Shown here piece after piece: positions 20,008-57,786 of a DNA stretch of 64,000 bases (positions within the stretch are counted from its first letter, which is position 1; each line of letters opens with the position of its first letter). Made by a program: the position numbers and the translations under genes. This DNA comes from Mobula hypostoma. Lineage: Eukaryota. The notes beneath the pieces are model-generated. The model saw only the letters and a list, made by a program, of their open reading frames with translations, was not told the DNA's origin and made no database searches. The stretch spans positions 58,964,001 to 59,028,000 of the forward strand of contig NC_086108.1 of the NCBI RefSeq assembly GCF_963921235.1, in the 5' to 3' direction.

Positions 20008-23000
20008 CTTTTTAGAGCAGTTTGTTGTTGAGCCTACTAGGGACCAGCTATACTGGATTGGATGTTATGTAATGAACCAGAGGCGATTAGGGAGCTTCAG
20101 GTAAAAAAAACCTCTCAGGAACCAGTGATCACAATATGATTGAGTTCAACTTGAAATTTGATAGGGAGAAAGTGAAGTCTGATGTAGCAGTATTTCAGTG
20201 GAGTAAGGGAAATTACAGTGGTATGAGAGAGGAGTTGGCCAAAGTAAACTAGAAAGAGCTGCTGGCAAGGTGTCAGCAGAACAGCAATGGCATGCATTTC
20301 TAGGAAAAATAAGGAAGGTGCAGGACTTATGTATTCCAAAACTGAAGAAATACTCAAAAAGTAAAATAGTACAACAATGGCTGACAAGGGAGGTCAAAGA
20401 TATTGTAAACGCAAAAGAAAGGGAATACTACAAAACAAAAATTAGTGGGAAGATAAAGGATCGGGAAGTTTTTAAAAACCTACATAGAGTAACTAAAAAA
20501 ATTATTAGAAGGGAAAAGATAAAATATGAAAGCAAGCTAGCAAATAATGTCAAAGTGGGTAGTAAAACTTTTTTCATGTATGTTAAAAATAAAAAAAAAT
20601 GAGAGTGGATATAGGACTGCTAGAAAATGAGGCAGAAGAAATAATAACAGGGGACAAGGAGATGGCTGATGAGCTAAATGAGTATTTTGCATCACTCTTT
20701 ATGCCTAATGTTGTAGTGTGTGAAGGAAGAGAGCTGAGTGCAGCTATTATAATAAGAGAATATGTGCTCAAAAAGCTGAAAGACCTAAAGACCTATAAGT
20801 CAACCAGACCAGATGAACTGCACCCTAGGGTTCTGAAAGAGGTAGCATTAGAGATTGTGGTGGCATTAGAAATGATCTTTCAAAAATCATTGGACTCTGG
20901 TATGGTGCAAGAGGACTGGAAAATTGCAAATGTCACTCCACTCTTTAAGAAAGGAGGAGGGCATCAGAAAGGAAATTATAGACCAGTTAGCCTGACTTCA
21001 GTGGTTGGGAAGATGTTAGAGTCAATTGTTAAGGATGAGGTTATGGAGTACTTGGTGACACAGGACATGATAGTACAAAGTCAGCATTGCTTCCTTCAGG
21101 GAAAATCCTGCCTGATGAACCTGTTGGAATTCTTGGAAGAGATCACAAGTAGGATAGATAAAGGGGATGCAGTGGGTGTTGTATATTTGGACTTTCAGAA
21201 GGCCTTTGACAAGGTACCACACATGAGGCTGCTTACCAAGTTAAGAGCCCATGGTGTTACGGAAAAGTTACTAACATGGTTAGAGCATTGGCTGATTGGT
21301 AGGAGGCAGCGTGTAGGAATGAAAGGATACTTTTTTGGTTGGATGCCAGTGACTAGTGGTGTTTCGTAGGGGTCGGTGTTGGGACCACTTCTTTTTATGC
21401 TGTATATAAAGGAATGATTTAGATGATGGAATAGATGGTTTTGTTGCGAAGTTTGCAGATGATACGAAGATTGGTGGAGGGGCAGGTAGTGTTGAGTAGG
21501 ATGCAGAAGGACTTGGACAGATTAGGAGAATGGGCAAGAAAATGGCAAATGAAATACAATGTTGGAAAATACATGGTCATTCATTTTGGTAGCGTGGACT
21601 ATGTGTGGACTATTTTCCAACTGGGGAGAAAATCCAAAATCTGAGATGCAAAGGGATTTGGGAGTCTTTGTGGAGAACACCCTAAAGGTTAACTTGCAGT
21701 TTGAGTTGGTGGTGAGGGAGGCAAATGCCATGCTAGCATTCATTTCAAGAGGTGTAGAATACAAGAGCAAGGATGTGATGCTGAGGCTTTATAAGGCACT
21801 GGTGAAGCCTTATCTTGAGTACTCTTCTGAGTACTCAGTAACAGTTTTGGGCCCTTCATCTTAAAAAGATGTGCTGGCATTGGAGAGGGTCCAGAGGAGG
21901 TTCACAAGGATGATTCCAGGAATGAAAGGATTAAGTTTTAAAGGATTAGCTTTAAGTTCCTCGGGGTCAATATCACCAATGACCTGACTTGGTCCAACCA
22001 AGCAGAGTTCACTGCCAAGAAGGCCCACCAGTGCCTTTACTTCCTGAGAAAACTAAAGAAATTTGGCCTGCCCCTAAAACCCTCACTAATTTTTATAGAT
22101 GCACCGTAGAAAGCATTCTTCTAGGGTGCATCACAACCTGGTATGGAAGTTGTCCTGTCCAAGACCGAAAGAAGCTGCAGAAGATCGTGAACAGGGCGCA
22201 GCACATCACATAAACCAATCTTCTGTCCTTGGACTCACTTTACACCGCATGCTGTTGGAGCAGTGCTGCCAGGATAATCAAGGACACGGCCCACCCAGCC
22301 AACACACTTTTTATCCCTCTTCTCTCCAGGAGAAGGCTCAGTTGCTTGAAGACTCGTACGGCCAGATTTGGGAACAGCTTCTTTCCAACTGTGATAAGAC
22401 TGCTGAACGGATCCTGACCCAGATCTGGGCCGTAACCTCCAAATACCTGGACCTGCCTCTCGGTTTTTTTGCACTACCTTACTTTCCATTTTTCTATTTT
22501 CTATTTATGATTTATAATTTAATTTTTTAATATTTACTGATTTTTACTATTTTTAATATTTAATATTTGTAATCCAGGGAGCGGGAAGTGCAGAATCAAA
22601 TATCACTGTGATAATTGTATGTTCTAGTATGAATTGTTTGGCGACAATAAAGTATAAACTATAAAGTATTCTCATATGAGGAACATTTGATGGTTCTGGT
22701 TCTGTACTCACTGGAATTCAGGAGGACGCAGGGAGATCTCACTGAAACCTTTCAAATGTTGAAAGGCCTAGACAGAGTAGATGTGAAAAGTCTAGGACAA
22801 GAGAGCACAACCTCAGGATAGAGGAGCGCCCTTTCAAAACAGAGTTGCGGAGAAATTTCTTTAGCCAAAGGGTGGTGAATTTGTGGAATTTGTTGCCACA
22901 TGCAGCTGTGGAGGCTGGGTCATTGGGTGTATTTAAGGCAGAGATTGATAGGTTCTTGATTGGACATGACATCAAAGGTTACGGGGAGAAGGCCGGGAAC

Positions 23001-27137: not shown

Positions 27138-27819
27138 ATCATTAATATGGCAGCACACAGGAATGCAGCGGCTCCTCTGGCTCCCAATAATAGTGCTAGT
27201 TTTATATTCTAAGATAGTGTTTCAAAGTTTCTAGTCAGGGAATTCAGGCAACCAAAGCTCTGCAAATTTAGCGCTGCTGAAATCTTCAACAAAATTCCTT
27301 TTAATCCGCCTGCTGCAGAGTTAATAGTGGTGTTCATTGGACTAGGGATTCTGTGGGCACCAGACCCGATGACAGCAACCTGGCTGGCTGAGGAACTGGC
27401 AGGTGCAGGCAGTGTGATAGAAAGCAGAAATGCAGCAAGAGAGCCAGGGCATGAGCTAGGCTGAGAGTTAAACTGACCATTAGTTACTAAACTGACTATT
27501 AGTACATTATTTTTCCTGGCCAACATCCACTCGCTAGAAAATAAAAAGACTCGCTGATACTGAGAATAAATGCAAAGAAGGAGATGTGAAATTGCTGCCT
27601 TCTGGTTTTCACCGAAATGTGGCTAAGTACCAATATGCTGCACTTGGTGTTTCAACTTGACCGGATTACTCTGGTCCACGCAGACAGAAAGTCCAAAGAA
27701 GTGGAATCGGTATGTACATTAACAAAGGTTAGTGTACAACCTCATCTGCAGTTAGCAGTCACTGTTCGAGGGCAATTGAACGTCTTATAATTAATTGCCA
27801 GCCAGGAATAGATTTTGTT

Positions 27820-28350
27820 GCCAATCCGCACCGACTGGGGTCAAGGATCCGGTTGCATAAGGAAGTATTGAGGCCTAGGTCTTGAAGTTTATTGATTAGT
27901 TTTGAATGGATGATAGTATTAAGTGCTGAACTGTAATCAATGAAGAGCATCCTGATGTATGTGCCTTCACTATCCAGATGTTTTGGAGTTGAGTGATGAG
28001 CCAATGAAATGGAATCTGCTGCTGATCTGTTCTGACAGTAGGCAAATTGGAGCATATCCATGTCACTTCTCAGGCAGGAATTGATATGTTTCATCACCAA
28101 CTTCTCAATACACTTCACCACAGTGGACACAATTGCGACTGGTTGATGGTCATTCAGGCAGGTTATCTCGTTCTCCTTAGGCATCGGTATAATTGAAGCC
28201 TGCTTGAAGCAGGTGGGTAACTCAGACTGCTGAAGCGAGAGGTTAAAAATATTATTGAACAGTCCAGCCTGTTGACAGCACAGGTTTTTAGTACTCGGCC
28301 TGGTACCAGCTCTGTGCTGGATGGTTTTTGTGAATTTACCCTCCTGATGG
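27820..28350 (-). mobile_element. Rex-Babar-type LINE RT fragment
   Basis: ORF 27759-28184: CLNDHQPVA..LQFAYCQNRSAADSIS..RMLFIDYSSALNTI. Confidence 0.85.
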
Positions 28351-29156
28351 ATGGTCTCATGTCAATCTCAGTCCATGCTGGACACTCACCAATATGTTTA
28401 CTGAATGATCCACTCTATGACAGATGCCATAGGATCTGTCATGCACCTGGCCCTGACACCAAGGGCACACTTGTCAGAATGCTGTTTCTGGATCACATTT
28501 TGGCATTCAACACTATTGTCCCACTGATCCTGGTGTACAAACTCTTACTCCTCGGTCTAAATACACCAACCACTGTGCAATGGGGTGTTGGACTTCCTAA
28601 CTAACAGATCTCAGATACTCAAGGTGCACAAATGCTCCTCCCTCCCCATCATCCTCAACATGAGTGCCCCCAAGGCTGTGCGCTGAGCCCATTGCTGTAC
28701 ACTAGTGGTCGCCAACCAGTCGATCGTGATCGACTGGTCGATCTTTGAGACTTTCCCATTAGATCCTGAAAAAAATGAAAAATAAATACACAAATACATT
28801 ATGCCTGATAAACCTTCTGATGCAAAAGCAAATTTTACCCCTAGAGTGCATATGTGAGTCGTTTTTAACCCACACTTAGTTGCTTTCCCTGGTTATTGTG
28901 TTTCTCTTTTTCCAGCGTCGTGCGCCACATGTGTGCTGACATCATGTGACTATTGCCGCTGTCTGTCAAATTTCCGTGGAGTGTGGGAGAACTTCGTTTA
29001 TCTTAAACATAAATGAACAAACAGGCAAACTGTCCAATGGCGAAAGAAAACAACACGTGTGGGTAAAAATGACTCACTTATGCATTCATGACTTAACTAA
29101 AATTTGATCAACTTTAATCGGTTTTGACTCTATTATGCTGCTATTCATATTACGTC

Positions 29157-30569
29157 AGAGAATCCTGGGAACTATAGACTAATGAGTCTTATGTCGGTGG
29201 TCTGCAAAGTATTGGAAAGGATTCTTAATAATAGGATCTACGAGCACTTGGAGAAGTACAGTCTACTCAAGGATAGTCACCATGGCTTTGTGAAGGGAAG
29301 GTCATGCCTCACGAGCCTAATTGAATTTTTTGAAGAGGTAACAAAAGGAATTGATGAGGGTAGGGCGGTAGATGTGGTCTACATGGATTTTAGCAAGGCA
29401 TTTGACAAAGTCCCTTACGAGAAACTCATCCAGAAAGTCATAAGGCATGGGATCAGTGGAACCTTGGCTGTTTGGATAAAAAATTGGCTTGCAGGAAGAA
29501 AGCAAAAGGTAGTAGTGGAAGGAAAGCATTCTGCCTGGAGGTCGGTGACTAGTGGAGTACCACAAGGATCTGTCCTGGGACCCCTGCTCTTTGTGATTTT
29601 TATAAATGACCTGGATGAAGAGGCAGAAGGATGGGTGAGTAAGTCTGCAGATGACACGAAGATTGGAGGAGTTATGGATGGAGCTGTAGGTTGTCAAAGG
29701 TTACAAGAGGATATAGACAGGATGCAGTTGGGCAGAAAAGTGGCAGATGGAGTTCAATCCGGATAAGTGTGAGGTGATGCATTTTGGAAGGACAAACCAG
29801 AAGGCTGAGTATAGGGTTAATGGTCCGTTACTTAAGAGTGTGGATGAACAGAGGGACCTTGGGGTTCAAATCTATACATCCCTCAAGGTCGCTGCATAGG
29901 TTGATAGGATAGTTAAGAAGGCCTATGGGATGCTAGGCTTCATTAATAGGGGGATTGAGTTCAAGAGTAGAGAGGTCATGTTGCAACTCTACAAATCTCT
30001 GGTGAAACCACACTTAGAGTATTGTGTTCAGTTCTGGTCACCTCATTGTAGGAAGGATGTGGAAGCTATGGAGTGGGTGCAGAGGAGAATTACCAGGATG
30101 TTGCCTGGATTGGAAAACAAGTCTTATGAGGCAAGGCTAGCAGAGCTGGGACTTTTCTCTTTGGAGAATAGAATGATGAGAGGGGACTTGATAGAGGTCT
30201 ACAAGATTATCAGAGGCATAGATAGGGTGGATAACCAGTACCTGTTTCCCAGGGCATGAATAGCAAACACCAGAGGGCATACGTACAAACTTAAGGGAGG
30301 GAAGTTGAGGGGAGACATCAGGGGTAAGTTTTTTACACAGAGGGTTGTGGGTGCCTGGAATGACTTGCCAGGGATGGTGGTGGAGGTTAAAACATTAGGG
30401 GTATTTAAGAGCCTCTTGACAGGCACATGGATGAAAGAAAGATAGAGGGTTACGGGGTAGTGTGGGTTTAGTACTTTTTTTTAAGGAATATATGGGTCGG
30501 CACAACATCAAGGGCCAAAGGGCCTGTATTGTGCTGTAGTATTCTAGTGTCTAGTGTCTAGTGTCTAGT
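29157..30569 (+). mobile_element. 5'-truncated CR1 LINE inside the hAT element
   Basis: ORFs 29182-29766 ([27 protein letters not shown]) and 29930-30259; (CTAGTGT)n tail. Confidence 0.93.
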
Positions 30570-30843: not shown

Positions 30844-33800
30844 ATGGTGGAGACTCCACAAAAGAAGGAGAAAATGTACAAATTCCATCCAGAATGGGAA
30901 GAGCAGTTTCTATTTACCTTGGTGAAAGACAAGTGTGTATGTACGTTGTGCTGCCAAACACAAGCACTGACTAAAAGAGGGAATCTGGAGTGGCACCACA
31001 ACACCAACCACCAGAAATTTAAAGACACCCACCCCCCCAAAGAGCGCAATTCGTGCCAGGAAAGTTGAGGAACTGAAATCGGGGTTGAAGGTCCAGTAAT
31101 CATCTTCCACAAAACATGCTGCTCAAAATAAGGCTGATATTGAAGCATCATTGCATGTAAGTCACCTTTTGGCTAAACACAAGAAGCCTTTTACAAACGG
31201 TGACTTATTCAAGGAAGCAATGGCCATTACCACAGAGACTGTTTTTAATGACTTTAAAAACAAAAACGACATCAAAACCGTAATACATAACATACTGCTT
31301 GGCCCTGCAACAGTGACAAGGAGGTTGGAGTCACTGTAAGAGGATGTGGATCGACAAATCTTAAAGGACTTGTCATTCTGTGAATATTTTTCACTACAGT
31401 TCGATGAATCCCTGGATGTAATGCAAACAGCTCAGTTTGTTGTATTTGTCAGAATGGCTTTCCAGGATTTTACAACCAAGAAGGACTTCCTCACTCTTTT
31501 GCAATGAAAGGAGAGAATGAGAAGTGAGGATATTTACAATGAGTTTAAAAAATATGTCCATGAAAATGACATCTCCATTCATAAACTGGTGACAATTACT
31601 ATTATGGGGCCCCCGTAATGCGCGGTGTGCACGTTAGTTTTATAGCACTGTGCCGTAACACTGTGATTTTCCCAACTTCCTGGATTATCACTGTGTGATT
31701 CATCAGCAGGCCTTGGCTGGGAAGGTCGTGGACTTTCCTCATGTAATGACACTGGTGGTCAAACTGATAAACTTGATTCGAGCAAAAGTGCTGCAGCACC
31801 GATTATTCAAGGCGTTACTAGGTGAGCTCAATACCGCTTACTTCGGCAGTTGAACGGGGCACGACTGCGCAAACGCATGTGAGTCGGACCGTGAGGCAGT
31901 GGGAGTGTTTAAAAGAGAGCAGTTTGTGGAAGTCGGTCATTTTCTTCAGCAGTTGAATGGGGCACGACTGCGCAAGCACATGTAAGTCGGACCGTGAAGC
32001 AGCAGGAGTGTTTAAAAGAGAGTAGATTAATGGAGCAGGCGATGTTGTAACGGGCGATGGAGTAGAGGGAGACAGAGTAGGAAGGCTTTGACTCCTGAGG
32101 CTTCGGCGAGCAGAGACTGAGGAAGAACTTCACTCCAAGTGAGGTAAGGTTGGGTAAGTTCCTTTAATAAATCTAATTACCTTAAGAGTAGGTAATGGAG
32201 GCAGCAGTTAAGGCAGTTGAGTGCACCATTTGCAGGATGTGGGAAGTCAGAGCGAGCACAATCGTCCCTGATAACTACACCTGTGAAAGGTGTATCCAGC
32301 TGCAGCTCCTGACAAACCGAGTTAGGGAACTGGAGCTGGAGCTGGATGAACTTTGGATCATTCTGGAAGCAGAGGCAGAAATAAACAGGAGTTACAGGGA
32401 GATAGTCACCCCTAAGAGTCAGGAGATAAGTAGCTGGGTGACTGTCAGGAGAGGGAAGGGGAATAGACAGAATGAGCAGAGCACCCCTGTGGCCGTTCCC
32501 ACCATCGTTTTGGATACTGTTGATGGGGACGACCTACCAGGGACAAGTTGCAGTGTTTGTGTCTCTGGCACCGAGACGGAACCCTCAGCTCAGAAGGGAA
32601 GGAGGGAAGGGAAGGAGGGAAAAGAGGAGAGCAGTAGTGATAGTGGATTCAATAGTTAAGGGGACAGATAAGAGGTTCTGTGGAAGAGATCGAGAATCCC
32701 GGATGGTCTGTTGCCTCCCTGGTGCCAAGGTCCGTGATATCTCGGATCGAGTTCTCGGTATTCTCAAGAGGGAGGGTGAGCAGCCGGAAGTCATGGTCCA
32801 TGTAGGGACCAATGACGTGGGTAGGAAGAGTGAGGAGGTCCTGAAAGGTGAGTTTAGGGAGTTAGGCGCCAAGTTAAAGGACAGGACCTCCAGGATAGCA
32901 ATCCCAGGATTGCTACCAGTGCCACGTGCAGGCGGGTTTAGAAATACTAAGATAGCGTAGATCAACACATGGCTGAAGACATGGTGCAGGAGGGAGGGCT
33001 TCAGATTTTTAGATAATTGGGCAGTTTTCCAGGGAAGGTGGGACCTGTTCCGGTGGGATGGTCTACAACTGAACTGGAGGGGGACAAATATTCTTGCAGG
33101 TCGGTTTGCTAGAGAGGCTCCAGTGGATTTAAACCAGATACGGGGGTGGGGGGGATGGGAAACTAGAGTGTAGGAACAGATATAGGGAAGAAGGAAGAAA
33201 AAGAAAATAGTAAAGTTGTTTGCACCGTTAGTGATAAACAGAGAGAAAGAGGTGGAAAACTCCTTAAATGGATTTATTTTAATGCTAGGAGCATTATAAG
33301 AAAGGTGGTTGAGCTTAGAGCATTGAATGATACCTGGAAATATTATTTTGTAGCTATTAGTGAAACATGGTTACAGGAGGGGTGTCATTGGCAACTAAAT
33401 ATTCCTGGATTTCATTGCTTCAGGTGTGATAGAATCGGAGGGACAAGAGGGGGAGGTGTTGCATTGCTTGTCAGAGAAAATATTACAGCGGTGCTCTGGC
33501 AGGATAGATTAGAGGGCTAGTCTAGGGAGGCTATTTGGGTGGAATTGAGGAATGGGAAGGGTGTAGTAATTCTTATGGGGGTGTATTATAAACCACCAAA
33601 TGGGGAGCTAGAATTGGAGAAGCAAATTTGTAAGGAGACAGCAGATATTTGTAGTAAGCACAGGGTTGTGATTGTGGGAGATTTTAATTTTCCACACATA
33701 GACTGGGAAATCCATACTGTAAAAGGGCTGGATGGTTTGGAGTTTGTGAAACGTGTGCAGGGTAGTTTTTTGCAGCAATACATAGAGGTATCAACTAGAG

Positions 33801-36800
33801 AAGGGACAGTGTTGGATCTCCTGTTAGGGAATGAGATAGGTCAGGTGACGGAGGATTGTGTTGGGGAGCGCTTCGGGTCCGGTGATCACAATGCTATTAG
33901 TTTCAATATAATTATGGAGGAGCATAGGTCTGGACCCAGGGTTGAGATTTTTGATTGGAGAAGGGCTAACTTTGAGGAGATGCGAAAGGATTTAGGAGGA
34001 GTGGGTTGGGACAATTTGTTTTATGGGAAGAATGTAATAGAGAAATTGAGGTCATTTAAAGGTGAAATTTTGAGAGTACAGAATCTTTATGTTCCTGTTA
34101 GGTTGAAAGGAAAGGTTAAAAGTTTGAGAGAGCCATGGTTTTCAAGGGATATTGGAAACTTGGTTCAGAAAAAGAGAGATATCTACAATAAATATAGGCA
34201 GCATGGAGTAAATGAGGTGCTTAAGGAATATAAAGAATGTATAAAAAATCTTAAGAAAGAAATTAGAAAAACTAAAAGAAGATAAGAGGTTGCTTTGGCA
34301 AGTAAGGTGAAAATAAATCCCAAGGGTTTCTACCATTATATTAATAGCAAAAGGATAGTGAGGGATAAAATTGGTCCCTTAGAGAATCAGAGTGGACAGC
34401 TATGTGTGGAGCCAAAAGAGATGGGGGAAATTCTGAACAATTTCTTTTCTTCGGTATTCACTAAGGAGAAGGATATTTAATTGTGTAAGATAAGGGAAAC
34501 ATGTAGGGAAGTTATGGAAACTATGATGATTAAAGAAGAGGAAGTACTGGAGGTTTTAAAGAATATAAAAGTCGATAAGTCTTCGGGTCTGACAGGATAT
34601 TCCCTAGGACCTTGAGGGAAGTTAGTGTGGAAATAGCAGGGGCTCTGACAGAGATATTTCAAATGTCATTAGAAACGTGGATGGTGCCAGAGGATTGGCG
34701 TATTGCTCATGTTGTTCCATTGTTTAAAAAGGTTTCTAAGAGTAAACCTAGCAATTATTGGCCTGTGAGTTTGACATCAGTGGTGGGTAAATTGATGGAA
34801 AGTATTTTTAGAGATGGTATATAAAATTATCTGGATAGACAGGGTTTGATTAGGAACAGTCAACATGGATTTGTGCGTGGAAGGTCATGTTTGACAAATC
34901 TTATTGAATTTTTTGAAGAGGATACTAGGAAAGTTGACAAGGTTAAAGCAGTGGATGTTGTCTATATGGACTTCAGTAAGGCCTTTGACAAGGTTCCACA
35001 TGAAAGGTTGGTTAGCAAGGTTCAATCGTTAGGTATTAATATTGAAGTAGTAAAATGGATTCAGCAGTGGCTGGATGGGAGATGCCAGAGAGTGGTAGTG
35101 GATAACTGTTTGTCAGATTGAAGGCCAGTGATTAGTGGTATGCCTCAGGGATCTGTACTGGGTCCAATGTTGTTTGTCATATACATTAATGATCTGGATG
35201 AAGGGGTGGTAAATTGGATGAGTAAGTATGCAGATGATATTAAGATAGGTGGTGTTGTGGATAATGAAATAGGTTCTCAAAGCTTGCAGAGAGATTTAGG
35301 CCAGTTAGAAGAGTGGGCTGAAAGATAGCAGATGGAGTTTAATGCTGATAAATGTGAGGTGCCATATTTTGGTAGGACTAATCAAAATAGGACATATATG
35401 GTAAATGGTGGGGCATTGAAGAATGCAGTAGGACAGAGGGATCTAGGAATAATGGTGCATAGTTCCCTGAAGGTGGAATCTCATGTGAATAGGGTGTTAA
35501 AGAAAGCTTTTGGTATGCTGGCCTTTATTAATCAGAGCATTGAGTATAGGAGTTGGGATGTAATGTTGAAATTGTACAAGGCATTGGTGAGGCCAAATTT
35601 GGAGTATTGTGTACTGTATTGGTCACTGAATTATCGGAAAGATATCAACAAAATAGAGAGAGTACAGAGAAGAATTATTAGAATGTTACCTGGGTTTCAT
35701 CACCTAAGTTACAGAGAAAGGTTGAACAAGTTGGGTCCTTATTCTTTGGAACGTAGAAGGTTGAGGGGGGACTTGATAGAGGTACTTAAAATTATGAGGG
35801 GGATAGATAGAGTTGACATGGATAGGCTTTTTCCATTGAGAGTTGGGGAGATTCAAACAAAAGGACATGAGTTGAGAGATAAAGGGCAAAAGTTTAGGGG
35901 TAACTTGAGGGGGAACTTCTTTACTCAGAGAGTGGTAGCTGTGTGGAACGAGCTTCCAGCAGAAGTGGTTGAGGCAGGTTCGATGTTGTCATTTAAAGTT
36001 AAATTGGACAGCTATATGGACAGGAAAGGATTGGAGGGTTGTGGGCTGGGTGCAGGTCGGTGGGACTAGGTGAGAGTAAGAGTTCGGCACGGACTAGAAG
36101 GGCCGAGATGGCTTGTTTCCGTGCTGTAATTGTTATATGGTTATATGGTTACGGAGCCATAATTCTTCAGGTTGATGTTCGGTGGTTGAGTCACGGCAAA
36201 GTGCTGCAATGATTTGTTGACTTGCTGCCTGAGATAAAGACTTTTCTGTCGACAAGAAACGAGGAGCATGAGGAACTGTCAGATGATGCGTGGCTACTGG
36301 ATTTAGGGTTTCTGACAGACCTAACAGCTAAATTAAATGCACTTAACAACGAGCTTATGGGAGAAGACCGAAACCTGTCCCACATGATAAGCACAGTAAA
36401 TGCGTTTAAGGCCAAGCTCTGTATTTGGATTTCAAATTTAAAGAACGGAGGCTGACACGTTGGAGAAAATGTTACAGGCCATCAAGGGAAAAAAATGATT
36501 TTTGCTCTGTGCAGTACTGTGCTTACCTAGACAAACTGGCAATAGAGTTCGATTGGTGTTTTGGGGAGTTATCATCATGAAAGATATTGCTGCATTTATT
36601 TCAAACCCAATTCTGCCGATTGATATAGAACAGATAGCAGCCAAATTCCAGCAAGTATTTGGTGTGCCAAGTGATATTGAAATGGAAACAATTGATTTGC
36701 AAAATGACATCGAGCTTAAAGCAAGATCAAGGGACGGTGACTTTTGGGGGCTTGTCAGCAGGGAGAAGTTTCCTCATCTCACCACGTGCACTAAAAGTCA

Positions 36801-38091: not shown

Positions 38092-38156
38092 TGCGTTCAC
38101 CAGCAACTTTGATGTGTGTTGCTTGAATTTCCAGCATCTGCAGAATTCCTGTTGTT
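38092..38156 (+). mobile_element. 65-bp PLE terminal fragment
   Basis: Matches the pLTR tail of the 56-57 kb copies; 11-bp TSD TACTTTATCAT (38081-38091 and 38157-38167). Confidence 0.85.
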
Positions 38157-38331
38157 TACTTTATCATCACCTGTCAATCATTTTATGTACAGGTACTCCT
38201 GTGCCTAGCATCACTTTATGGACATTAAATCAATCTAAGTATATAAGCTATCATGTATTTATATTTATTTTGTTCCACACCTAATTGTGTTTTTTTTGTG
38301 CTGTAACAAATCCAGAGTAATAATTATTTTG

Positions 38332-38542
38332 CAAACACGAGGAAATCTGCAGATGCTGGAATTTCAAGCAACACACATAAAAATTGCTGGTGAACGCAGC
38401 AGGCCAGGCAGCATCTATAGGAAAAGATATAGACGATGTTTTGGGCTGAGACACTGGGTCTCGGCCCAAAACGTCAACTGTACCTCTTCTTATAGATGCT
38501 GCCTGGCCTGCTGTGTTCACCAGCAATTTTTATGCAAGTTGC
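38332..38542. mobile_element. PLE-derived fold-back element
   Basis: Inverted arms centred near 38455; 14-bp TSD TAATAATTATTTTG (38318-38331 and 38543-38556); both arms are cut before the CTGANGA box. Confidence 0.88.
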
Positions 38543-38629
38543 TAATAATTATTTTGTTCTCTTTTACACTTGTGTACTGGAAATAACATTAAACAATCTT
38601 GAATTACCCTGAATTACTTGAATTATTAA

Positions 38630-44031: not shown

Positions 44032-44171
44032 ATTATTTAACAGTTTGTTTTTAACTTTGCTCTTCTTATTTTAAAGATTTTTAAAAACTAAAACATTTTA
44101 AATGCAGGCCAATTGGTAAAGTGAATGAAACACCACATCATTATTGTTGAAAGACACCGGAACTAAGAGCA

Positions 44172-44376
44172 AACAAGAGGAATTCTGCAGATGCTGGAAA
44201 TTCAAGCAACACACATCGAAGTTGCTGGTGAATGCAGCAGGCCAGGCAGCATCTGTAGGAAGAGGTACAGTCGACGTTTCATGCCGAGACCCTTCGTCAG
44301 GACTAAATGAAGGAAGAGTTAGTAAGAGATTTGAAAGTGGGAGGGGGAGGGGGAGATCCAAAATGATAGGATCACA
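44172..44376 (-). mobile_element. Single PLE pLTR fragment with intact hammerhead core
   Basis: TSD TAAGAGCA (44164-44171 and 44377-44384); minus strand 44268-44305 reads tagtc-CTGACGA-agggtctcggcat-GAAAC-GTC-gactg. Confidence 0.85.
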
Positions 44377-50076: not shown

Positions 50077-50114
50077 ACACACAGACACACACACAAACAC
50101 ACTCACACACACGT

Positions 50115-50158
<44 letters not shown>

Positions 50159-50244
50159 ACACACACGTGCACACACACACGCGCACATACACACGCATGC
50201 ATGCGTATATACAAACACACACACACACACGCACACGCACACAC
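50077..50244. repeat. Compound (CA)n microsatellite
   Basis: Directly visible, with a repeated acacacaaacacactcacacacacgtgc subunit. Confidence 0.98.
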
Positions 50245-51168
50245 AACATTTAAATAAAGGCACTGAGAAACACAGTGTAGTAAATTCCTGATGTGCATCA
50301 AGTGCAGAACTACACATCATGTACTGCAAATGTGAGACATAAATTGGACAATTTATTAATGCCTGTGGCAAATAAAACATTCCTAGAACCAAGACTATTG
50401 AAGGTTATATTCTGCAATCCTAAACAGCTTAAAGACACCACAGGGACCATTGCTTGAAAATAATAGCCCAGACTGCACTGTGGATAACAAACCTCACACT
50501 TGCACAATAATCCTGTCCTCTGAGCCTCAGTTGGATGTTGCACCTGAACACAAAATGAAAGAGTTACCACTTTCCCTATACGTGCTTAGATCTCTTAAAC
50601 TGTCAAAATTCAACTTCTTGTTGTAGATACAGAGTCTGCCTCACTCCCATCTCTCAGAGGGAATACGGCATGAAATGGTCAGCAGCACAGCTCAATCCAT
50701 TCACTCCAGTCATTTCCAGTCCACTCTATTCCCTTTTTATGATACCTCTCTCACCCAGTGCAAGGAATAAAGACATCTGAGTGAATGAAATGCAGCATGT
50801 TATATGTCCAATTAAAGAGTATAACTTCTGTGTTTACATATCTTAAAGTTACATCACATGCCACCATGTTTCTGGTACTATTTAATTGAAAGGTTACTTG
50901 CAAAGACTAATCATAGAGTCAAGCACTACCAAGTCTGCAGTTTTCACTTTGCATTCTCTTTGCATGTGATCAACTAAGACGTAGAGGGAGTCCAGACTGG
51001 TGCAATGGTGGGACAATAACGTGCAACACTTGATGACTTGACTCCTTTTCTGGATTTTGGATTATGTAATATGTAGGCTTTCACATAGCTACTCAGACAT
51101 GTTTCAATATTATGCAATTTGGGCATGAATCAAAAGTTGCAGGTAACTTTTCTTAAATTTAAAATATA

Positions 51169-51844
51169 AGTAGCCCCCCTGGCTACCCTCAGGGTCGCTC
51201 GGCTCGCTGTCATCTAGGGAAACAGCCCTCGGCCCCGCCAAACTGGGTAATAGTTTGTGTGGATGCTGTGTGATGTACCCCACCCCACCCAAATAACAGA
51301 CAATACACCAGATACAATTAAATGATTTACAGTTTATAGATATTACTGGGACTATATAATTAATAGAGAATAAAATATATAAGGAAAATAAAAGGCGCCA
51401 CACTGATCAAAGTTCAATTTCTTCGTGCACAACAGTTGGAGCTCAATCAATTCCTGACGACCACCCGGATCCTGTCGACTCACGGCTCGGGACCGGAGCC
51501 TTTCCGCACGTCCACCATCCTCTCTGTCTCCTCTCCTCGCCGAACACCCCGCTCGGGGTCCCACCCCATTAGCGGACCCCACAGCACCTTCCATTCTCTG
51601 TCCCTCTCTCCCACCTTCTGCCTCAAGACCCCACGCATGTAGTATCTTCAAATTCACCAAAAACATAACAACTATCCCAATTGGTTCATTCGTCCTCATA
51701 TCAATAGATAATACAAAACAAACCGCTAGCGGGAAGGACTTTCTCGGCATTTAACATAACAAAGAAGCATTCCTCAGTATAACATAACAAAGAAGCCATT
51801 TTAATTAGCCTCCGCAGTAACATAAAAGACGAAAACCCCTTACA
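51169..51844 (-). repeat. 3' LTR (676 bp)
   Basis: Direct repeat of 54625-55303, roughly 95% identical by eye; terminal T changed to A at 51169. Confidence 0.96.
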
Positions 51845-51856
51845 CTCTCCCCCACC
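51845..51856 (-). other. Polypurine tract
   Basis: Minus strand GGTGGGGGAGAG directly before the TGTAAGGGG start of the 3' LTR. Confidence 0.85.
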
Positions 51857-52344
51857 AAATAAAGTCATGCCCTCATGACTTCTAAATAAATCTCCAACCA
51901 GTCCTGCAGACACACAACACACACATACACAGATACGCACAGTGACAGTGCTCCCCAAACAGTGGACCTTACGCCTGTCCTACGGGCACTACATAGGCCA
52001 ACCTATCTGGGAGCTTCTTAACCCTCCGAGACCTCCGCACCCTCTCACCTAAACCCAAAAGGCTCAGACACTACTAGGGATACCTTGGGCCTGCTTGCCA
52101 ACTCCTCTCTCACTCAGGCCACCATTACAGCTCGGAGCCCCCAGTCCCGTGACCAGGGCCCCACCTCTTTTCCTTCCTGATCCTGCTGTAACTCAGACTG
52201 CCCACAGCTAGGTCTCCCCACTTCACCTGACTCAGTGGGAAAAGGGCCAAAGGTCTCTTCCTCAATCACGGGGAAGTTAGCGGAAGGCAGCATGTACTAC
52301 ATGTGCAGCACATCATCCTTCGAATCCGTATTCTTCCTCATTCC

Positions 52345-53190
52345 CTCGATCGATAGCTGCTGTTTGAGTTTCTCCACACTGAAACATTTAGCCGGGGCTA
52401 CTCTTTCGGCCTCCTGCAGTCGAGACGTCGGCTTCGGGGACTCCTTCAACTCTCACCACAGCCTCAGCAGCTCTGACTTAGGGTTCTTGGCCATCTCCAT
52501 CTGGGATGCAGTTACCCCACCAGCTTCTTCCACCCTGACCTGAAAAGCAGCAGTTAAAAGATGTTCAGCCTCCAGTTTTTCTTCCTGATGACGTCTTCCA
52601 GGTCAACTTTCAGGCTCCTTTCAAATGTCCGCCTCCCTTTTCCGAGATCTGTCCTCCATTTCTTCATTTCACCGGGAGTGTAGTCAAACTCCCCTCCCTG
52701 GGCTCTCGGTTTTCTGCTGGCCTTAGTCAGAACACTTCCTTGATCTTCCCCAACTTTTAAGTCTTCCAATCTTTCATGAATCGACGTCTTGAGTTTCCGC
52801 TGATCCCTTCGAAGGTGGGTCATTGTTTCTTCTTGCTGGATTAATTCATCAGTACATGACCGCAGTGTCGGCTCGGAATTCCGTTGCTCCTTCTCTACGT
52901 TGACGAGCGTGAATTCCAAATCTGCAATGGTCGTCCCACAAACGTGGCACTCAGTCTCCGGCCAGCATTTCTGGGCACTCAGTTCAGCGGTGCAAATCCC
53001 CTCTCTCCCCTGTGTCTCTTTCAAATTGACGACCTGGGTTTTCATCCCCAGGTCCACCAACGTCTTTTCCAACACCAGGAAGTTCAACTGGTATGTCGGG
53101 TCAATTTTCTCACATTGCACCAAACTCTTCCGGCCAAAAACTCCTCCACATTTTATACTTCGCTTTTGTTGCCTGGGCTCAGCCACTCGC
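52345..53190 (-). pseudogene. Captured, internally deleted sarcomeric myosin heavy chain rod (S2/LMM) fragment
   Basis: ORF 52554-53195: AELSAQK..ETEC...IADLEFTLVNVEKE...LEDLKVGEDQGSVLTKA...KKWRTDL..RRTFERSLK; second frame 52345-52587: [54 protein letters not shown]; motifs are colinear with the myosin II rod as I recall it. Confidence 0.85.
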
Positions 53191-53191
53191 C

Positions 53192-53480
53192 TCACCTCAT
53201 AGCCCCCCCGGCGAATCCAAACTCTAGGAGGTCATCCACATACGTCAAAACTCCACACACCTTCACTTCCCCCATGGTCTTCCTCTTGCCCTGCGGGAAG
53301 GATGCAGGGGCTCCGGATATGCTCTTGGGCATCTTTTTGGATCGGAAGAATCCTAGGGAACTAATAACGGCCGTCGTCGGCTCGACAGCCACACTCCTCG
53401 GGATCTGGCAACATCCACTCCTCAGATCCAGCACATTAAACCACGTCGCATAATCCACACACATGCTGCCTCCATCTTCC
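53192..53480 (-). pseudogene. Degenerate, deleted Gypsy RT fragment
   Basis: [35 protein letters not shown] and TYVDDLL; ends just after the YxDD motif. Confidence 0.9.
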
Positions 53481-53689
53481 ACGCCGCTAGGGTCCAGTTG
53501 CCGTGACCTCTCTCTCACTGAGGTGTCTTCAGCGGTCAACTCCCCTCCCTCATGGTAGTTTGGAGCGTCTACTAAGAGGGTCTCACCCTCAGCTACTTTC
53601 CCCAGGCTGTACTACCGCTGGGTCTTGTTTAAATTCAGTACCGGCTCAAGGCTGCTACACATGTCCCCAGAAGCAACTCGACGCGCTGG

Positions 53690-53960
53690 CTGCCCAGACA
53701 ATGCCCCCATGAACTCCAGGGTCATTAACCAATCATTGTCTTCTGGATAACTACTGGCACTGGTACCCAAAATCTCCGGTGCCCTTGCGGTTGTCAAGGG
53801 TAAATGCTTCAGACACTGGTTGTAAAACGAACTGTACAACTTGACCTGTGCCCCGGGGTCGAGGATGGCTTTAGCGTCGCTTCCCTCTATCCGTAATGAC
53901 ACCCTCGGGCGTGGTCCCTCTACGCCTTCAGGAATAGGGTCTTCTCCTTTCGGAAGTTCA
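53690..53960 (-). pseudogene. Degenerate Gypsy aspartic protease
   Basis: PIPEGVEGP...[14 protein letters not shown]: the DTG/DSG site reads DPG. Confidence 0.8.
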
Positions 53961-54099
53961 TTGGTACATTGCTGGGAACATGCTTCCCCAGAGACCCCAA
54001 GCCGTTCCCCCACTGGGCCTTCACTAAGTTTCCCGACACCCCTCTGATTAGCTGAACAACTGACGGAGGGGCTGATCCCCTGAAATGATCCCCCGGCAC

Positions 54100-54600
54100 T
54101 GCAAGCAATTTAGCTGCCCTCCTAGCCAGAGAAGACACACTGAAAACTTTCCCCCCTCTTTCAAATAACTGACAGCTGTCACTCCGGTGTAAGTGAACCT
54201 GACAGCTCTAACACCGTCACCAGCCCGCCTACTCAAACTTTCAACCAATCCCTGTCGCTCTCCCTCCACCGAGCACTGCCACTCATCTAACAACTGAGAG
54301 ATCCACTCTGCCCATGTCTCGCACGTCTCCGCCCCTTTTGGGGTGGACACTATCCCCAGCGCCAGACCGAGCCTGCCAGAGCTAGAACAATTATTCGCAG
54401 ACCCTACCTCCAAATCAGACCACTCTTTCCTCTCTCTCCCAACAGCAAGGACAGCCCCGAGTTCCACCTCCAACTCGTCAATGCTAGTCTGAACTCGAAC
54501 AAAGACCGCACCCACCACGCATGCAGCAATAACCAGCAAATAACCCACAGAGACACACATTACAGATTTAAACAGGGCACCCACACAGCATACAGTAGAC
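54100..54600 (-). pseudogene. Degenerate PNMA-type gag remnant
   Basis: [41 protein letters not shown] resembles the PNMA/Gypsy capsid motif (P.GEE.FE.W....L.EWQ.S..EKR..L.ESL). Confidence 0.8.
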
Positions 54601-54603
54601 CCA

Positions 54604-54621
54604 ATCTGGGACGAGCCTCCA
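54604..54621 (-). other. Primer-binding site, tRNA-Pro-like
   Basis: Minus strand TGGAGGCTCGTCCCAGAT matches the canonical Pro PBS TGGGGGCTCGTCCGGGAT at 15/18, 3 nt after the 5' LTR. Confidence 0.8.
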
Positions 54622-54624
54622 CAT

Positions 54625-55303
54625 TGTAGCCCCCCGGTCACCCTCAGGGTCGTTCGGCTCACTGTCATCTAGGGAAACAGCCCTCGGCCCCGCCAAACTG
54701 GGGTAATAGTTTGTGTGGATGCTGTGTGATGTACCCCACCCCGCCCAAATAACAGACAATATACCAGATACAATTAAATGATTTACAGTTTATAGATATT
54801 ACTGGGACTATATAATTAATAGAGAATAAAATATAAAAGGAAAATAAAAGGCACCACACTTATCAAAGTTCAATCTCTTCGTGCACAAAACAGTTGGAGC
54901 TCAATCAATTCCTGACGACCACCCGGATCCTGTCGACTCACGGCTCGGGACCGGAGCCTTTCCGCACGTCCAGCGTCCTCTCCATCTCCCCTCCTCGCCG
55001 AACACCCCGCTCGGGGTCCCACCCTGTTAGCGGACCCCACAGCACCTGGTCCATTCTCTGTCCCTCTCTCCCGCCTTCTGCCTCAAGACCCCACGCATAC
55101 AGTATCTTCAAATTCACCAAAAACATACAACTATCCCAATTGGTTCATTCGTCCTCATATCAATAGATAATACAAAACAAACCGCTAGCGGGAAGGACTT
55201 TCTTAGTGTTTAACATAACAAAGAAGCATTCCCAAGTATAACATAACAAAGAAGCCATTTTAATTAGCCTCCGTAGTAACATAAAAGATGAAACCCCCTT
55301 ACA
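54625..55303 (-). repeat. 5' LTR (679 bp)
   Basis: TGTAGCCCC...CCCCTTACA on the plus strand; direct repeat of 51169-51844. Confidence 0.96.
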
Positions 55304-56129
55304 TATATATATCTATTCCCACTACCTACACTAACTACTGCATAGCCTTTACTGACATCCCAGTCTGAAATTCATCTCAAACCCCATTTGAAAGTACTTC
55401 CTTTTTACCCCTTTCCAGCTAGCATTCCTGATTATTTCCATACTGGATCAAACTATTGACTCTGTGGTTCAGGAATCTGGAGCCATCACTTGCCCAATTC
55501 CCTCACTGATCCTTAGTGCAGCAACTTCTCCTAAACCCTGACAAACAACATTTAATCCTTGGTCTAAGCCTTCTTACTCATCATCAGCTCATTTCTACCC
55601 CCTTATAATTAATTTCACAATCCATTTGTAACCCTGTCCTGACCTGACACTTGAGGACTCAATCACCTCTCAATGAAATTTGACTCTGAGTCACATAAGA
55701 TGATATGATGACTGAGAGGCAGAAAGCTTGGCTATGACACAGATTTTAAAAGAGAAACTAGATAAAGAGAAATAGAGTTTAAAGAAGAAATGATATAGCT
55801 TCTAGCCATGATATCAAAAAGGCTAACTTCCAATGATGGAGCAAGTACATTTGAAGATACTCAAGTGACCAAGAGCAGGGGATACAGAGTTGTGTGGGAA
55901 AGTATTTTTCACCCAGTGAATGGTTATAAAACTCATATAATCAAACAGGCGTGGAAATAGTCAATCAAATCTCAAGTCTGAATAAACATACAAAAGGAAT
56001 TGTGAGGTCAGAGAGATGGAACTGAATATTCTCCCTCTGCCATACTGATTTGTATTTTCTACAATTGAGGATTTCAAAGGTAGAGCAGAACTGGTAGTGG
56101 AAAAGGACAATCTTAGTTATGGTGCTAAT

Positions 56130-56383
56130 AACAGGAATTCTGCAGATGCTGGAAATTCAAGCAACATACATCAAAGTTGCTGGTGAACGCAGCAGGCCAG
56201 GCAGCATCTATAGGAAGAAGCGCAGTCGACGTTTCAGGCCGAGACCCTTCATCAGGACTAACTGAAGGAAGCTCTGGAAGCCTTCAGTTAGTCCCGACGA
56301 AGGGTCTCGGCCTGAAACGTCGACTGCGCTTCTTCCTATAGATGCTGCCTGGCCTGCTGCGTTCACCAGCAACTTTGATGTAT
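56130..56383. mobile_element. Young PLE-derived fold-back element with hammerhead motifs
   Basis: Arms 56163-56268 and 56281-56386 (106 bp, 2 mismatches, 12-nt loop); 14-bp TSD GTTATGGTGCTAAT (56116-56129 and 56384-56397). Confidence 0.95.
56223..56260 (-). ncRNA. Minimal type I hammerhead ribozyme motif
   Basis: tagtc-CTGATGA-agggtctcggcct-GAAAC-GTC-gactg; the opposite-arm copy (56289-56326) has CCGACGA, a core mutation. Confidence 0.8.
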
Positions 56384-57155
56384 GTTATGGTGCTAATCTT
56401 TGGGTGAAATATGAAAACATAGTGGCATACAACTTGCATAAGTTTCTTACAGGTGCTATTGAGGAGGATGAAGTTGTTGTCGCAAGAACACAAGAATTGA
56501 ACACAAGGGTTTTGCTATTCCCTAATATCCAGTTGGAGGGGATTTCTGCCATTAAGTGCTGTACATCATGCAAGTAGGTCCAGAATTTAGAAATGCAGAA
56601 AGGGCTGAGAAAGGAAGTAGTGAGATCAAACTGGATAATACTTGCATACATGTGAATGTTTACAAAGGTTTGCAAGTTTTATTAAAGATTTAGACTCTGG
56701 AATCCAAAATATAGTTTCTAAATTGACAGAGGAAATAAAATTAGTGGGGATAGCCAAGAATGAGAAGTATCATGACAAATTACAATACAGTGCTAATATA
56801 TTTTCAATATGGCCATATAATTGGCAAATGAATGCCTGTACTGAACAGTGGGAAATATTAAATGTTGTTAAGAAAAATTAAGTTGCCATATATTACTTGA
56901 AAATTGGAAACTAAATGGGGTAGAAAAATAAAGGAGGCTCATAGTCCAATTACACAAATCATTATAACTATGTTAGTAGGGCAATTAAAAAGAAAGCTGA
57001 GCACTATGGTTTATTCCTAGATGAATATAATTAAAGCACAGAGAAGTCATGTTAAATGTTTCAACAGGAATTCTGCAGATGCTGGAAATTCAAGCAACAC
57101 ACATCAAAGTTGCTGGTGAACGCAGCAGGCCAAGCAGCATCTATAGGAAGAGGCG

Positions 57156-57193
57156 CAGTCGACGTTTCAGGCCGAGACCCTTCGTCAGGACTA
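57156..57193 (-). ncRNA. Minimal type I hammerhead ribozyme motif
   Basis: tagtc-CTGACGA-agggtctcggcct-GAAAC-GTC-gactg. Confidence 0.8.
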
Positions 57194-57202
57194 ACGTAAC
57201 TA

Positions 57203-57240
57203 GGGTCCTGACGAAGGGTCTCGGCCTGAAACGTCGACTG
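57203..57240 (+). ncRNA. Minimal type I hammerhead ribozyme motif
   Basis: gggtc-CTGACGA-agggtctcggcct-GAAAC-GTC-gactg. Confidence 0.75.
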
Positions 57241-57786
57241 CGCCTCTTCCTATAGATGCTGCCTGGCCTGCTGCGTTCACCAGCAACTTTGATGTGTGTT
57301 GCTTAAATGTTTCAACTTGGGTTACACTATGCATGGAATTCTTTTCTTGCTAACATGTTTCAAAATTGATTGAGTGACACTAGTCACATATAAAAATGAT
57401 TTCCAAAGATTATACTTTGAGTTGTAAGCCTACACCATCAGCAAAGTGTGAACAGAAAAATCTGTGAATGACGACCTAATCGTCATCTTTAAAATTATTG
57501 AAGGTCTTGATGAAGTTAGACAAAGTAGGATACTTTCCCTTTTGAGAAAGAGCTAATCTGTTATTTGAGAAGGCACCAATAAATCAAAAAGGGAAAAATT
57601 TTTACTCAGACAGACACAAGAATACAGCATACAGAGTGTGGTGTAAATGGATTTAAAAGGAGGTTCGAGAAGCACATGAAGGAGGAAGAATGAAAGGGCT
57701 ATGCATCTTCTTGCTCAGTCTGCATAAGCATTTACAAATTAAGTTAGAGTTTTGTAAGCCTCTGTACGGCTCTGTTGAAAGGGTGG

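Follow-up and report, generated by a model that had tools for sequence, protein, structure and literature searches.

The interval 51169..55303 of the 64-kb window (the whole stretch of DNA that was analysed) is one dead, minus-strand Ty3/gypsy copy from an abundant family of ray LTR retrotransposons. Very probably the copy in the window is a decayed member of a family that lacks integrase, occurs in stingrays and devil rays, bears a fragment of a sarcomeric myosin rod and is likely copied in trans. The copies are many, they share deletions and a junction, and their decay lies mostly on shared branches.

Structure of the element and its myosin cargo

We recognised the following features, given in window coordinates:

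51165..51168, no strand, left target-site duplication TATA; low information, flanks TA-rich
51169..51844, minus, 3′ LTR, outer base changed (LTR pair alignment)
51845..51856, minus, polypurine tract (PPT), directly ahead of the 3′ LTR
51960..52344, minus, pol tail remnant (region behind integrase); stop at 52297-52299
52345..52584, minus, later pieces of the myosin cargo (about residues 1140-1190 and 1395-1434), with whole-codon deletions between; stop at 52453-52455
52578..53045, minus, first piece of the myosin cargo (S2/rod, MYH7 915-1070); frame broken near 52580 in the window copy
53052..53138, minus, RNase H remnant covering the mid-portion of the domain, without its first catalytic motif; domain limits taken from P0009
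53204..53611, minus, RT remnant; 26-aa internal deletion, YVDD retained, frame broken near 53205
53612..53935, minus, protease remnant; D-P-G at 53860-53852, stop at 53612-53614
54028..54034, minus, slippery heptamer GGGAAAC, by position and frame; a -1 shift would connect the frames of gag and protease
54035..54570, minus, PNMA-type gag, internally deleted; Pfam PF14893 at 54356-54174, P0010 169-227 (E 6e-5)
54604..54621, minus, primer-binding site (PBS), tRNA-Pro-like (15/18)
54625..55303, minus, 5′ LTR, TG...CA intact (LTR pair alignment)
55304..55307, no strand, right target-site duplication TATA; opens a short TA run, low information

The two LTRs, judged by eye in a preliminary description to be about 95 % alike, are 94.7 % identical over 680 columns and differ by 29 substitutions at 673 sites (K2P 0.045). 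The short target duplication, the PPT and the near-canonical PBS reported there are present as well and complete the Ty3/gypsy signature, with one terminal base altered; the TATA at both ends is weak evidence given the TA-rich sequence. The PBS agrees with the tRNA-Pro PBS at 15 of 18 positions. Elsewhere in the window we found no match to the element apart from the LTR pair itself, and Rfam gave no match over the window.

The remnants of gag, protease, RT and RNase H are collinear with the gypsy-type sequence of P0009 and P0010. Matches to domains and to intact pol agree with the earlier statement that gag, protease with its D-P-G, RT and the myosin piece are all decayed. The Pfam hit of gag (E 3e-5) is below the curated cut-off, its frame is broken near 54089 and the capsid region is truncated in the window copy. 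The heptamer is the same as in PEG10/PNMA3, according to the part of PMC11299033 consulted, and the fold of a stem downstream of it is no better than that of shuffles (z 0.53). The protease is 51 % identical to P0009 1-82 (E 1e-17; Pfam RVP E 0.15) and the RT 44 % to P0009 398-485 (E 5e-18 against intact pol). The 26-aa RT deletion appears as a gap against P0022 and P0031 and recurs in other copies.

Regarding RNase H, which had been described as not recognisable, we did identify a remnant at 53138-53052. Its similarity to intact RNase H (41 % over 29 aa, E 0.12) is weak alone, and is backed by the relatives P0016 (56 %, E 1e-8) and P0008 (E 0.002). No integrase was found behind it, either with Pfam or by comparison with intact pol, as had been noted before. 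The place of integrase is occupied by the myosin cargo, and the element is therefore a derivative and not an autonomous Ty3/gypsy member. The stretch 52587-52117 is 80 % identical to P0001, and 52046-51993 in the pol tail resembles the C-terminal motif of the intact pol P0009 weakly (E 0.47).

The cargo is thus bounded by element sequence on both sides, the RNase H remnant and the pol tail. Its first piece matches MYH7 915-1070 nearly without gaps (phmmer E 1.9e-12) and P0024 at 31 % over 157 aa, while its closest host-type match is P0025. The later pieces were found by tblastn of P0024 (E 9e-6 and 3e-4) and are 77-81 % identical to P0008 and P0002. The junction between myosin and pol tail had accordingly been placed about 200 bases off, as myosin extends from 52584 to about 52345 in another frame. 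The 213-codon frame reported earlier is indeed open, but only about 155 of its codons are myosin because the RNase H remnant occupies 53138-53052; about 50 codons are pol remnant.

At the protein level the 155 aa align to myosin without a gap, and going by myosin gene structure they presumably cover several exons. A single capture by template switching, with a spliced host mRNA as the source, likely gave rise to the fragment, possibly in a myliobatiform ancestor. The template switch would have broken off inside RNase H and re-entered in the pol tail behind integrase. The capture junctions have since been overwritten by later deletions, and repeated whole-codon deletions may have founded the subfamilies.

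No Pfam myosin domain was found in P0008, P0001 or P0012, and the ESM Atlas returned generic coiled-coil look-alikes only, all under 0.9. The cargo contains nine prolines in 250 aa in P0002 and seven in 208 in P0008, against none in 176 aa of P0024 and none in 151 of P0025. These fixed prolines, together with 0.47 substitutions per site, speak against purifying selection on the cargo protein. The donor label MYH16-like comes only from the NCBI name of P0005, other models being named after other myosins.

Copies in four ray species and the timing of decay

Fourteen named gene models carry related chimeras; they come from four ray species (six from Mobula birostris, six from M. hypostoma, one each from Hemitrygon akajei and Hypanus sabinus) and are biased toward open frames, for which they were picked. 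Those of M. birostris lie on contigs of five different lengths and those of M. hypostoma on contigs of four. The 26-aa RT deletion is common to the window copy, P0004, P0007 and P0008, a 13-aa myosin deletion is common to the window copy and P0001, and one myosin-to-pol-tail junction recurs in the four species. Dispersed copies with shared disabling deletions, the pattern by which a non-autonomous LTR family is recognised, are therefore what we found. Two other candidates were set aside, P0006 (a cluster member) as unrelated and P0033 as a match that looks like chance.

In read contigs, the depth of the interior relative to the flank was 673-3,690x in run X1 and 1,241-4,986x in run X4, which is summed depth and not copy number. 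Myosin bins reached 1,181 and 2,820 times the flank in X1 and X4, compared with 1,812 and 3,147 for gag-pol bins. The contigs that exit the LTR end into unlike flanks numbered 120 (X1) and 97 (X4), with an agreement of 0.38 and 0.37; solo LTRs and other families are among these ends. The joints and indels discussed are those listed for the read contigs (15 of 170 and 12 of 18, respectively). The multi-copy family predicted in the preliminary description thus exists in gene models and in read-contig depth alike. Run X9, which may be RNA, covers the interior of the element without the flank. Metagenome contigs scanned with P0008, and metagenome and viral contigs scanned with the LTR motif, gave no match.

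In a tree of the cargo based on 72 columns, a branch (support 93/90, not starred) sets the 12 element rows apart, next to the Narcine myosin model P0025. The window row, with 44 matched columns against a bar of 45, was left out and its place was taken from P0001. Shared internal branches hold about 0.40 of the 0.47 substitutions per site, or about 85 % of the cargo protein divergence, and terminal branches 0.07. Most of the decay therefore preceded the insertion, largely as had been proposed, and the window copy probably went on to decay neutrally afterwards.

As integrase is absent, the element likely spread in trans, with enzymes supplied by an intact relative. Such a helper would recognise the LTR ends, PBS and PPT, and would package and integrate the element RNA. 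Of 8,000 candidates in a profile search for long relatives, two were intact pols, both distant, and none was a ray helper. In P0009 and P0010 the RT, RNase H and integrase are complete, but an identity of only 44-51 % makes them remote stand-ins for the helper, not the helper itself. LTR-end bins were 11.9x (X1) and 6.6x (X4) deeper than the interior; an autonomous partner with the same ends, or other defective families, may account for this. Moreover, contigs departing at 53840 (30 and 21 of them) show a canonical aspartic-protease motif, possibly again from other defective families.

The open frame and alternative explanations

In P0004 and P0008 the protease end, RT and myosin stand in a single frame of 432 and 450 aa. 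The earlier suggestion was that the open frame reflects either chance or selection. No selection was seen in the window copy. What the family lineage preserved was probably the frame and not the myosin sequence; it seems to have held the frame open as prolines became fixed in the coiled coil. We lean slightly toward the view that selection in the copying lineages favoured a readable pol frame and not a myosin protein.

The main competitor assumes the same family and the same trans mobilisation but explains the open frame by chance, mutation bias or annotation bias without selection, and we regard it as possible but doubtful. An open frame is a precondition for a gene model to be called, the window copy shows at least three stops besides its three frame breaks, and the 22 well-supported near-fixed differences in X1 are flat over codon positions (9/6/7). 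The ORF of P0001 and P0015 also stops at about 52114, short of the end of the pol tail. Taking 50 replacements and the nonsense/missense ratio at its lowest, the probability of no stop is 0.17, whereas the roughly 100 replacements on shared branches predict 3.5-6.9 stops, and P(0) falls to 0.001-0.03. Among the listed multi-base indels of known length seen in at least two runs, all four are multiples of three (120, 60, 3 and 3; chance 1 in 81), compared with one of four listed single-contig deletions. One of two listed inserts at 52613 nets 38, which is not a multiple of three. The window copy, not picked for an open frame, likewise has whole-codon deletions.

As to what selection for a readable frame would act on, we tentatively suggest that the RNA is selected to be translatable, with ribosome passage through the pol frame serving stability or helper packaging and the myosin rod serving as stop-free stuffer. 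This would account for the whole-codon deletions and for the open 450-aa frame amid dead domains.

It is improbable that the cargo protein itself is useful, as a Gag-pol-coiled-coil fusion made by -1 frameshifting that aids entry of the RNA into the helper particle. In favour of this, relatives have an open frame, the slippery heptamer lies in the right register, and no variant examined has lost the rod entirely. However, the cargo has acquired the prolines described above and lacks a Pfam myosin domain in the three models named, different subfamilies drop different parts of it, and the gag capsid region is truncated in the window copy.

Very little speaks for the view that one recombinant copy decayed where it stood while gene conversion kept its LTRs alike. 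Two observations would fit it: in X1, places that differ at a share of at least 25 % number 201 in about 3,450 nt (5.8 %), exceeding the 2.2 % (half of the LTR distance) expected after insertion, and two of the four listed LTR differences are common to both LTRs. Subfamily structure explains the excess, although LTR conversion may contribute. Without invoking conversion, the LTR age agrees with the flank divergence to organism B of about 1.5 %, and LTR gene conversion is not needed to account for the data. Interior divergence did not equal LTR divergence. A single copy genome-wide, against which the preliminary description had set its proposal, was not found and is ruled out by the gene models from four named species, with their shared deletions, and by read-contig depth. 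Equally implausible is DNA-level duplication in place of retrotransposition, for which the missing helper could be cited. Against it, depth jumps at the LTR end from a single-depth flank to an interior about a thousandfold deeper, each run shows about 100 unlike flanks, there is a 4-bp duplication, and models lie on at least five chromosome-sized contigs in one species.

Comparison with known elements and significance

The kind of element is already known from animal retrocopies and from maize Bs1; its scale is unusual. According to the parts of Tan et al. 2016 (PMC5131818) used here, LTR-mediated retrocopies in animals can yield chimeras that serve as non-autonomous elements and retropose again. 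Like these, the ray family carries partial host coding sequence in sense orientation inside an LTR element, in place of enzyme genes. However, the cases in those parts are young and have few copies, whereas the ray family stands about a thousandfold over flank in depth, occurs in four named species and has deletion subfamilies. Bs1, as presented there, also has captured gene pieces, switch points common to copies and secondary retroposition, but with 1-5 copies, three donor genes and a protein argued to be functional; the ray family has one donor, many copies and an unconserved cargo sequence.

Among vertebrates, CrocERV29 (KIT-ligand) and CrocERV31 (nectin3) likewise multiplied captured mRNA within LTR elements, with in-frame cargo indels (Chong et al. 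2014, PMC4299795, in the parts consulted). By the same parts, these two crocodilian endogenous retroviruses count nine and six copies, their pol is not replaced, and their cargo ORFs are near-complete and under purifying selection; the ray family, by contrast, is a gypsy element without integrase and with degenerate cargo. In its PNMA capsid, the order of protease, RT and RNase H, and the pol tail motif, it resembles the PNMA-type Ty3/gypsy elements (Metaviridae) P0009 and P0010. Among the papers listed in literature searches there was no description of a ray myosin-cargo family, and the main text of a mobulid genome preprint (10.64898/2026.10.27.761883) has no occurrence of myosin or MYH.

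Family copies appear in RefSeq as genes: P0005 under the name myosin-16-like, P0012, P0014 and P0016 as myosin heavy chain-like, and P0008 even as an isoform of glutathione S-transferase. Such entries can skew the counts of ray gene families. The family represents gene capture by a vertebrate LTR retrotransposon multiplied far past the 1-9 copies of the published cases compared. Its many copies and nested subfamilies make it testable whether non-autonomous LTR elements are selected for a reading frame without selection for a protein. If the rod does serve as stop-free stuffer, the same would be predicted of other cargo families, which would make for a recurring, thousand-copy route of host-exon amplification.

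Structure of the element and its myosin cargo

The element is a Ty3/gypsy LTR retrotransposon carrying a piece of myosin rod, and its main features are placed as follows.

55303-51169, minus strand: the element
54625-55303, minus strand: 5′ LTR, paired with the 3′ LTR at 51169-51844
54034-54028, minus strand: GGGAAAC heptamer, at a site suited to a −1 shift from the gag frame into the protease frame

The LTRs, judged by eye to be about 95 % alike in the preliminary description, are 94.7 % identical over 680 columns. The signals listed there as retained are all present, with TATA as the likely TSD at both ends, a PPT before the 3′ LTR and a PBS after the 5′ LTR. The PBS lies three bases beyond the LTR and agrees at 15 of 18 places with what we take to be the tRNA-Pro PBS.

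The gag frame hit PNMA in Pfam with an E value of 3e-5, which is short of the curated cut-off, and the protease and RT remnants share 51 % and 44 % identity with P0009, an intact gypsy pol. GGGAAAC is also the heptamer of PEG10 and PNMA3 in the excerpted text of PMC11299033, while the excerpt of PMC11011659 gives background on frameshifts only. The stem behind the heptamer folds no better than shuffled sequences (z 0.53). No integrase match was found anywhere in the element interior, as previously described. RNase H, reported as missing, has left a remnant at 53138-53052 that is weak by itself (E 0.12); the same stretch matches P0009 RNase H at 56 % (E 1e-8) in the relative P0016 and with E 0.002 in the relative P0008. 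The myosin therefore starts near 53045.

The frame 52554-53231 aligns nearly gap-free with MYH7 residues 915-1070 (E 1.9e-12), and all 12 of its 12 PDB matches are striated-muscle myosins. The stretch 52584-52345, at first placed in the pol tail, is still myosin and consists of two later rod pieces joined by deletion; the real tail begins near 52344. The putative donor is a sarcomeric myosin nearest to P0025, a host-type myosin model from Narcine. The label of a MYH16-like donor was based on the NCBI name of the element copy P0005, and other models carry other myosin names. RefSeq labels on the copies P0005, P0008, P0012, P0014 and P0016 read myosin-16-like, myosin heavy chain-like and glutathione S-transferase theta-2 isoform X1. 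The cargo would have been acquired by template switching from spliced mRNA, because it lies in sense orientation and its 155-aa match runs gapless across what we take to be several exons. The model of Tan et al. 2016 is a further ground for this step.

None of 18 long window frames matched a host-gene family, so the surroundings look repeat-rich, intergenic or intronic. LINE-type endonuclease and RT remnants lie at 12069-14860, 20593-21369, 27759-28361, 29128-29766 and 33521-34285, one of them with a 514-aa open stretch, and an AC microsatellite of 84.5 units (50077-50245) is located 0.9 kb left of the element. Two near-perfect hairpins (56155-56386 and 57088-57308; arms of 104-106 nt, 98 % complementary, spacing of 12-13 nt) are head-to-head copies of a short repeat also found at 44169-44316 and 38092-38543, and neither had an Rfam match.

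Age of the insertion and timing of decay

The LTR pair differs by 24 transitions and 5 transversions over 673 sites (K2P 0.045), or about 2.2 % change per LTR since insertion. The likeness of the LTRs may also owe something to gene conversion: in sequencing run X1, differences with a share of at least 25 % occur at 201 places (5.8 %), which is above the 2.2 %, and part of these differences were inherited or converted, because two of the four LTR differences listed occur in both LTRs. However, the divergence of the flank in organism B fits the LTR age, and gene conversion is unneeded for this agreement between the sequences. This orthologous flank (run X4, 50270-51197) shows 14 differences, about 1.5 %, and one 15-base gap, and suggests that the insertion is older than the split of organisms A and B, two of the organisms behind the read runs. 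The contig reaches 28 bases into the LTR, the required minimum being 31.

That the decay predates the insertion, as proposed earlier, agrees with deletions shared among copies. The window copy and the relatives P0004, P0007 and P0008 lack 26 RT residues present in P0022 and P0031, 13 myosin residues present in P0002 and P0008 are absent from the window copy and P0001, and the myosin-to-tail junction is identical in models of all four species. In a tree of 22 rows and 72 columns, a branch (93/90) sets the 12 element rows apart, and they adjoin P0025 (own branch 0.007). Of the path to the P0001/P0002 group, shared branches account for 0.40 substitutions per site and the last branch for 0.07, to be compared with the change of about 2.2 % in each LTR. 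The window copy (44 matched columns), P0019 and P0029 were left out as having fewer than 45; the window's place was read from P0001 because this relative is 82 % identical and has the same deletion.

Copy number and mobilisation in trans

As a query, the window frame recovered three relatives in 64 candidates and one in 491. Their clusters held three further relatives and one unrelated member, P0006, which was rejected. With P0002 as the query, a full HMMER scan produced 29 matches; ten named ones among the 23 retrieved comprise seven ray element copies and three host-type myosins. The predicted multiple copies are thus found as 14 named models in four ray species (six in Mobula birostris, six in M. 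hypostoma, one each in Hemitrygon akajei and Hypanus sabinus).

We also compared read contigs of four runs over 50270-54620. Against flank depths of 8.98 (X1) and 34.2 (X4), interior depth was 673-3,690x and 1,241-4,986x; this is summed depth and no copy number, so only its order is taken, hundreds to thousands. The depth of the myosin bins is comparable in order to that of the gag-pol bins, and all interior bins were covered in X16, from a third organism. At the LTR end, 120 (X1) and 97 (X4) contigs continue into unlike flanks, counts that include solo LTRs and other families.

By established retroelement biology, this element is incapable of copying itself, as it has no integrase, a deleted RT and only part of RNase H. 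Its copies are nevertheless dispersed and LTR-bounded, and for this reason we infer a helper that would mobilise it in trans. Of the earlier claim of trans mobilisation, the non-autonomous family stands on these same features, while the helper is a prediction. LTR-end bins are 11.9x (X1) and 6.6x (X4) deeper than the interior, and the LTR middle equals the interior. In all four runs the ends, 51146-51437 and 51730-51875, are far deeper than the middle at 51438-51729. The ends seem common to a much larger set of elements and the middle specific to the myosin-cargo family. Contigs departing from the window at 53840 (30 and 21) read into a canonical aspartic-protease motif; together with the deep LTR ends they may point to the helper, or to other defective families.

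Reading frame of the family and known chimeras

Selection on the open frame, raised in the preliminary description, has left no sign in the window copy. Its frame breaks near 54089, 53205 and 52580, with stops at 53612, 52453 and 52297, and the 22 near-fixed differences among the 40 of 468 rows listed fall 9, 6 and 7 at codon positions 1, 2 and 3.

For the family lineage, selection for readability and not for the protein is somewhat the likelier reading. The relatives P0004 (432 aa) and P0008 (450 aa) have a single frame from the protease end across RT and myosin. Given about 100 replacements on the shared branches, 3.5-6.9 stops would be expected, and the probability of none is 0.001-0.03. 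Among the indels listed (12 of 18, with 15 of 170 joints; four rows have no known length), all four multi-base ones of known length seen in at least two runs have lengths divisible by three (120, 60, 3 and 3), versus one of four single-contig deletions (236, 58, 141 and 37). Counting against frame selection, gene models are biased to open frames, the indels and joints listed are a fraction of the total, the net length of one of the two inserts at 52613 is 38, and two one-base indel rows fall at the window copy's own frame breaks. As to the protein, the cargo has fixed prolines, nine in 250 aa and seven in 208, versus none in the host-type myosins P0024 and P0025, and subfamilies lose differing parts of it. 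We hold only tentatively the idea of frame-only selection, in which ray gypsy parasites are selected for translatable RNA and not for protein.

The search of the literature found no account of a ray myosin-cargo family, which may be catalogued in repeat libraries, and the main text of the mobulid genome preprint leaves myosin unmentioned. The excerpted text of Tan et al. 2016 (PMC5131818) describes animal chimeras of LTR elements and host sequence, which are of the same kind, secondary retroposition included, and gives one to five copies for Bs1. In the excerpt of Chong et al. 2014 (PMC4299795), crocodilian ERVs with captured KIT-ligand number nine copies and those with nectin3 six, and purifying selection acts on them, whereas the order of depth puts the ray family at hundreds to thousands. 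The overall interpretation given earlier is upheld with its anatomy corrected and its helper predicted, and the ray myosin family is of a kind already known, but unusually prolific.
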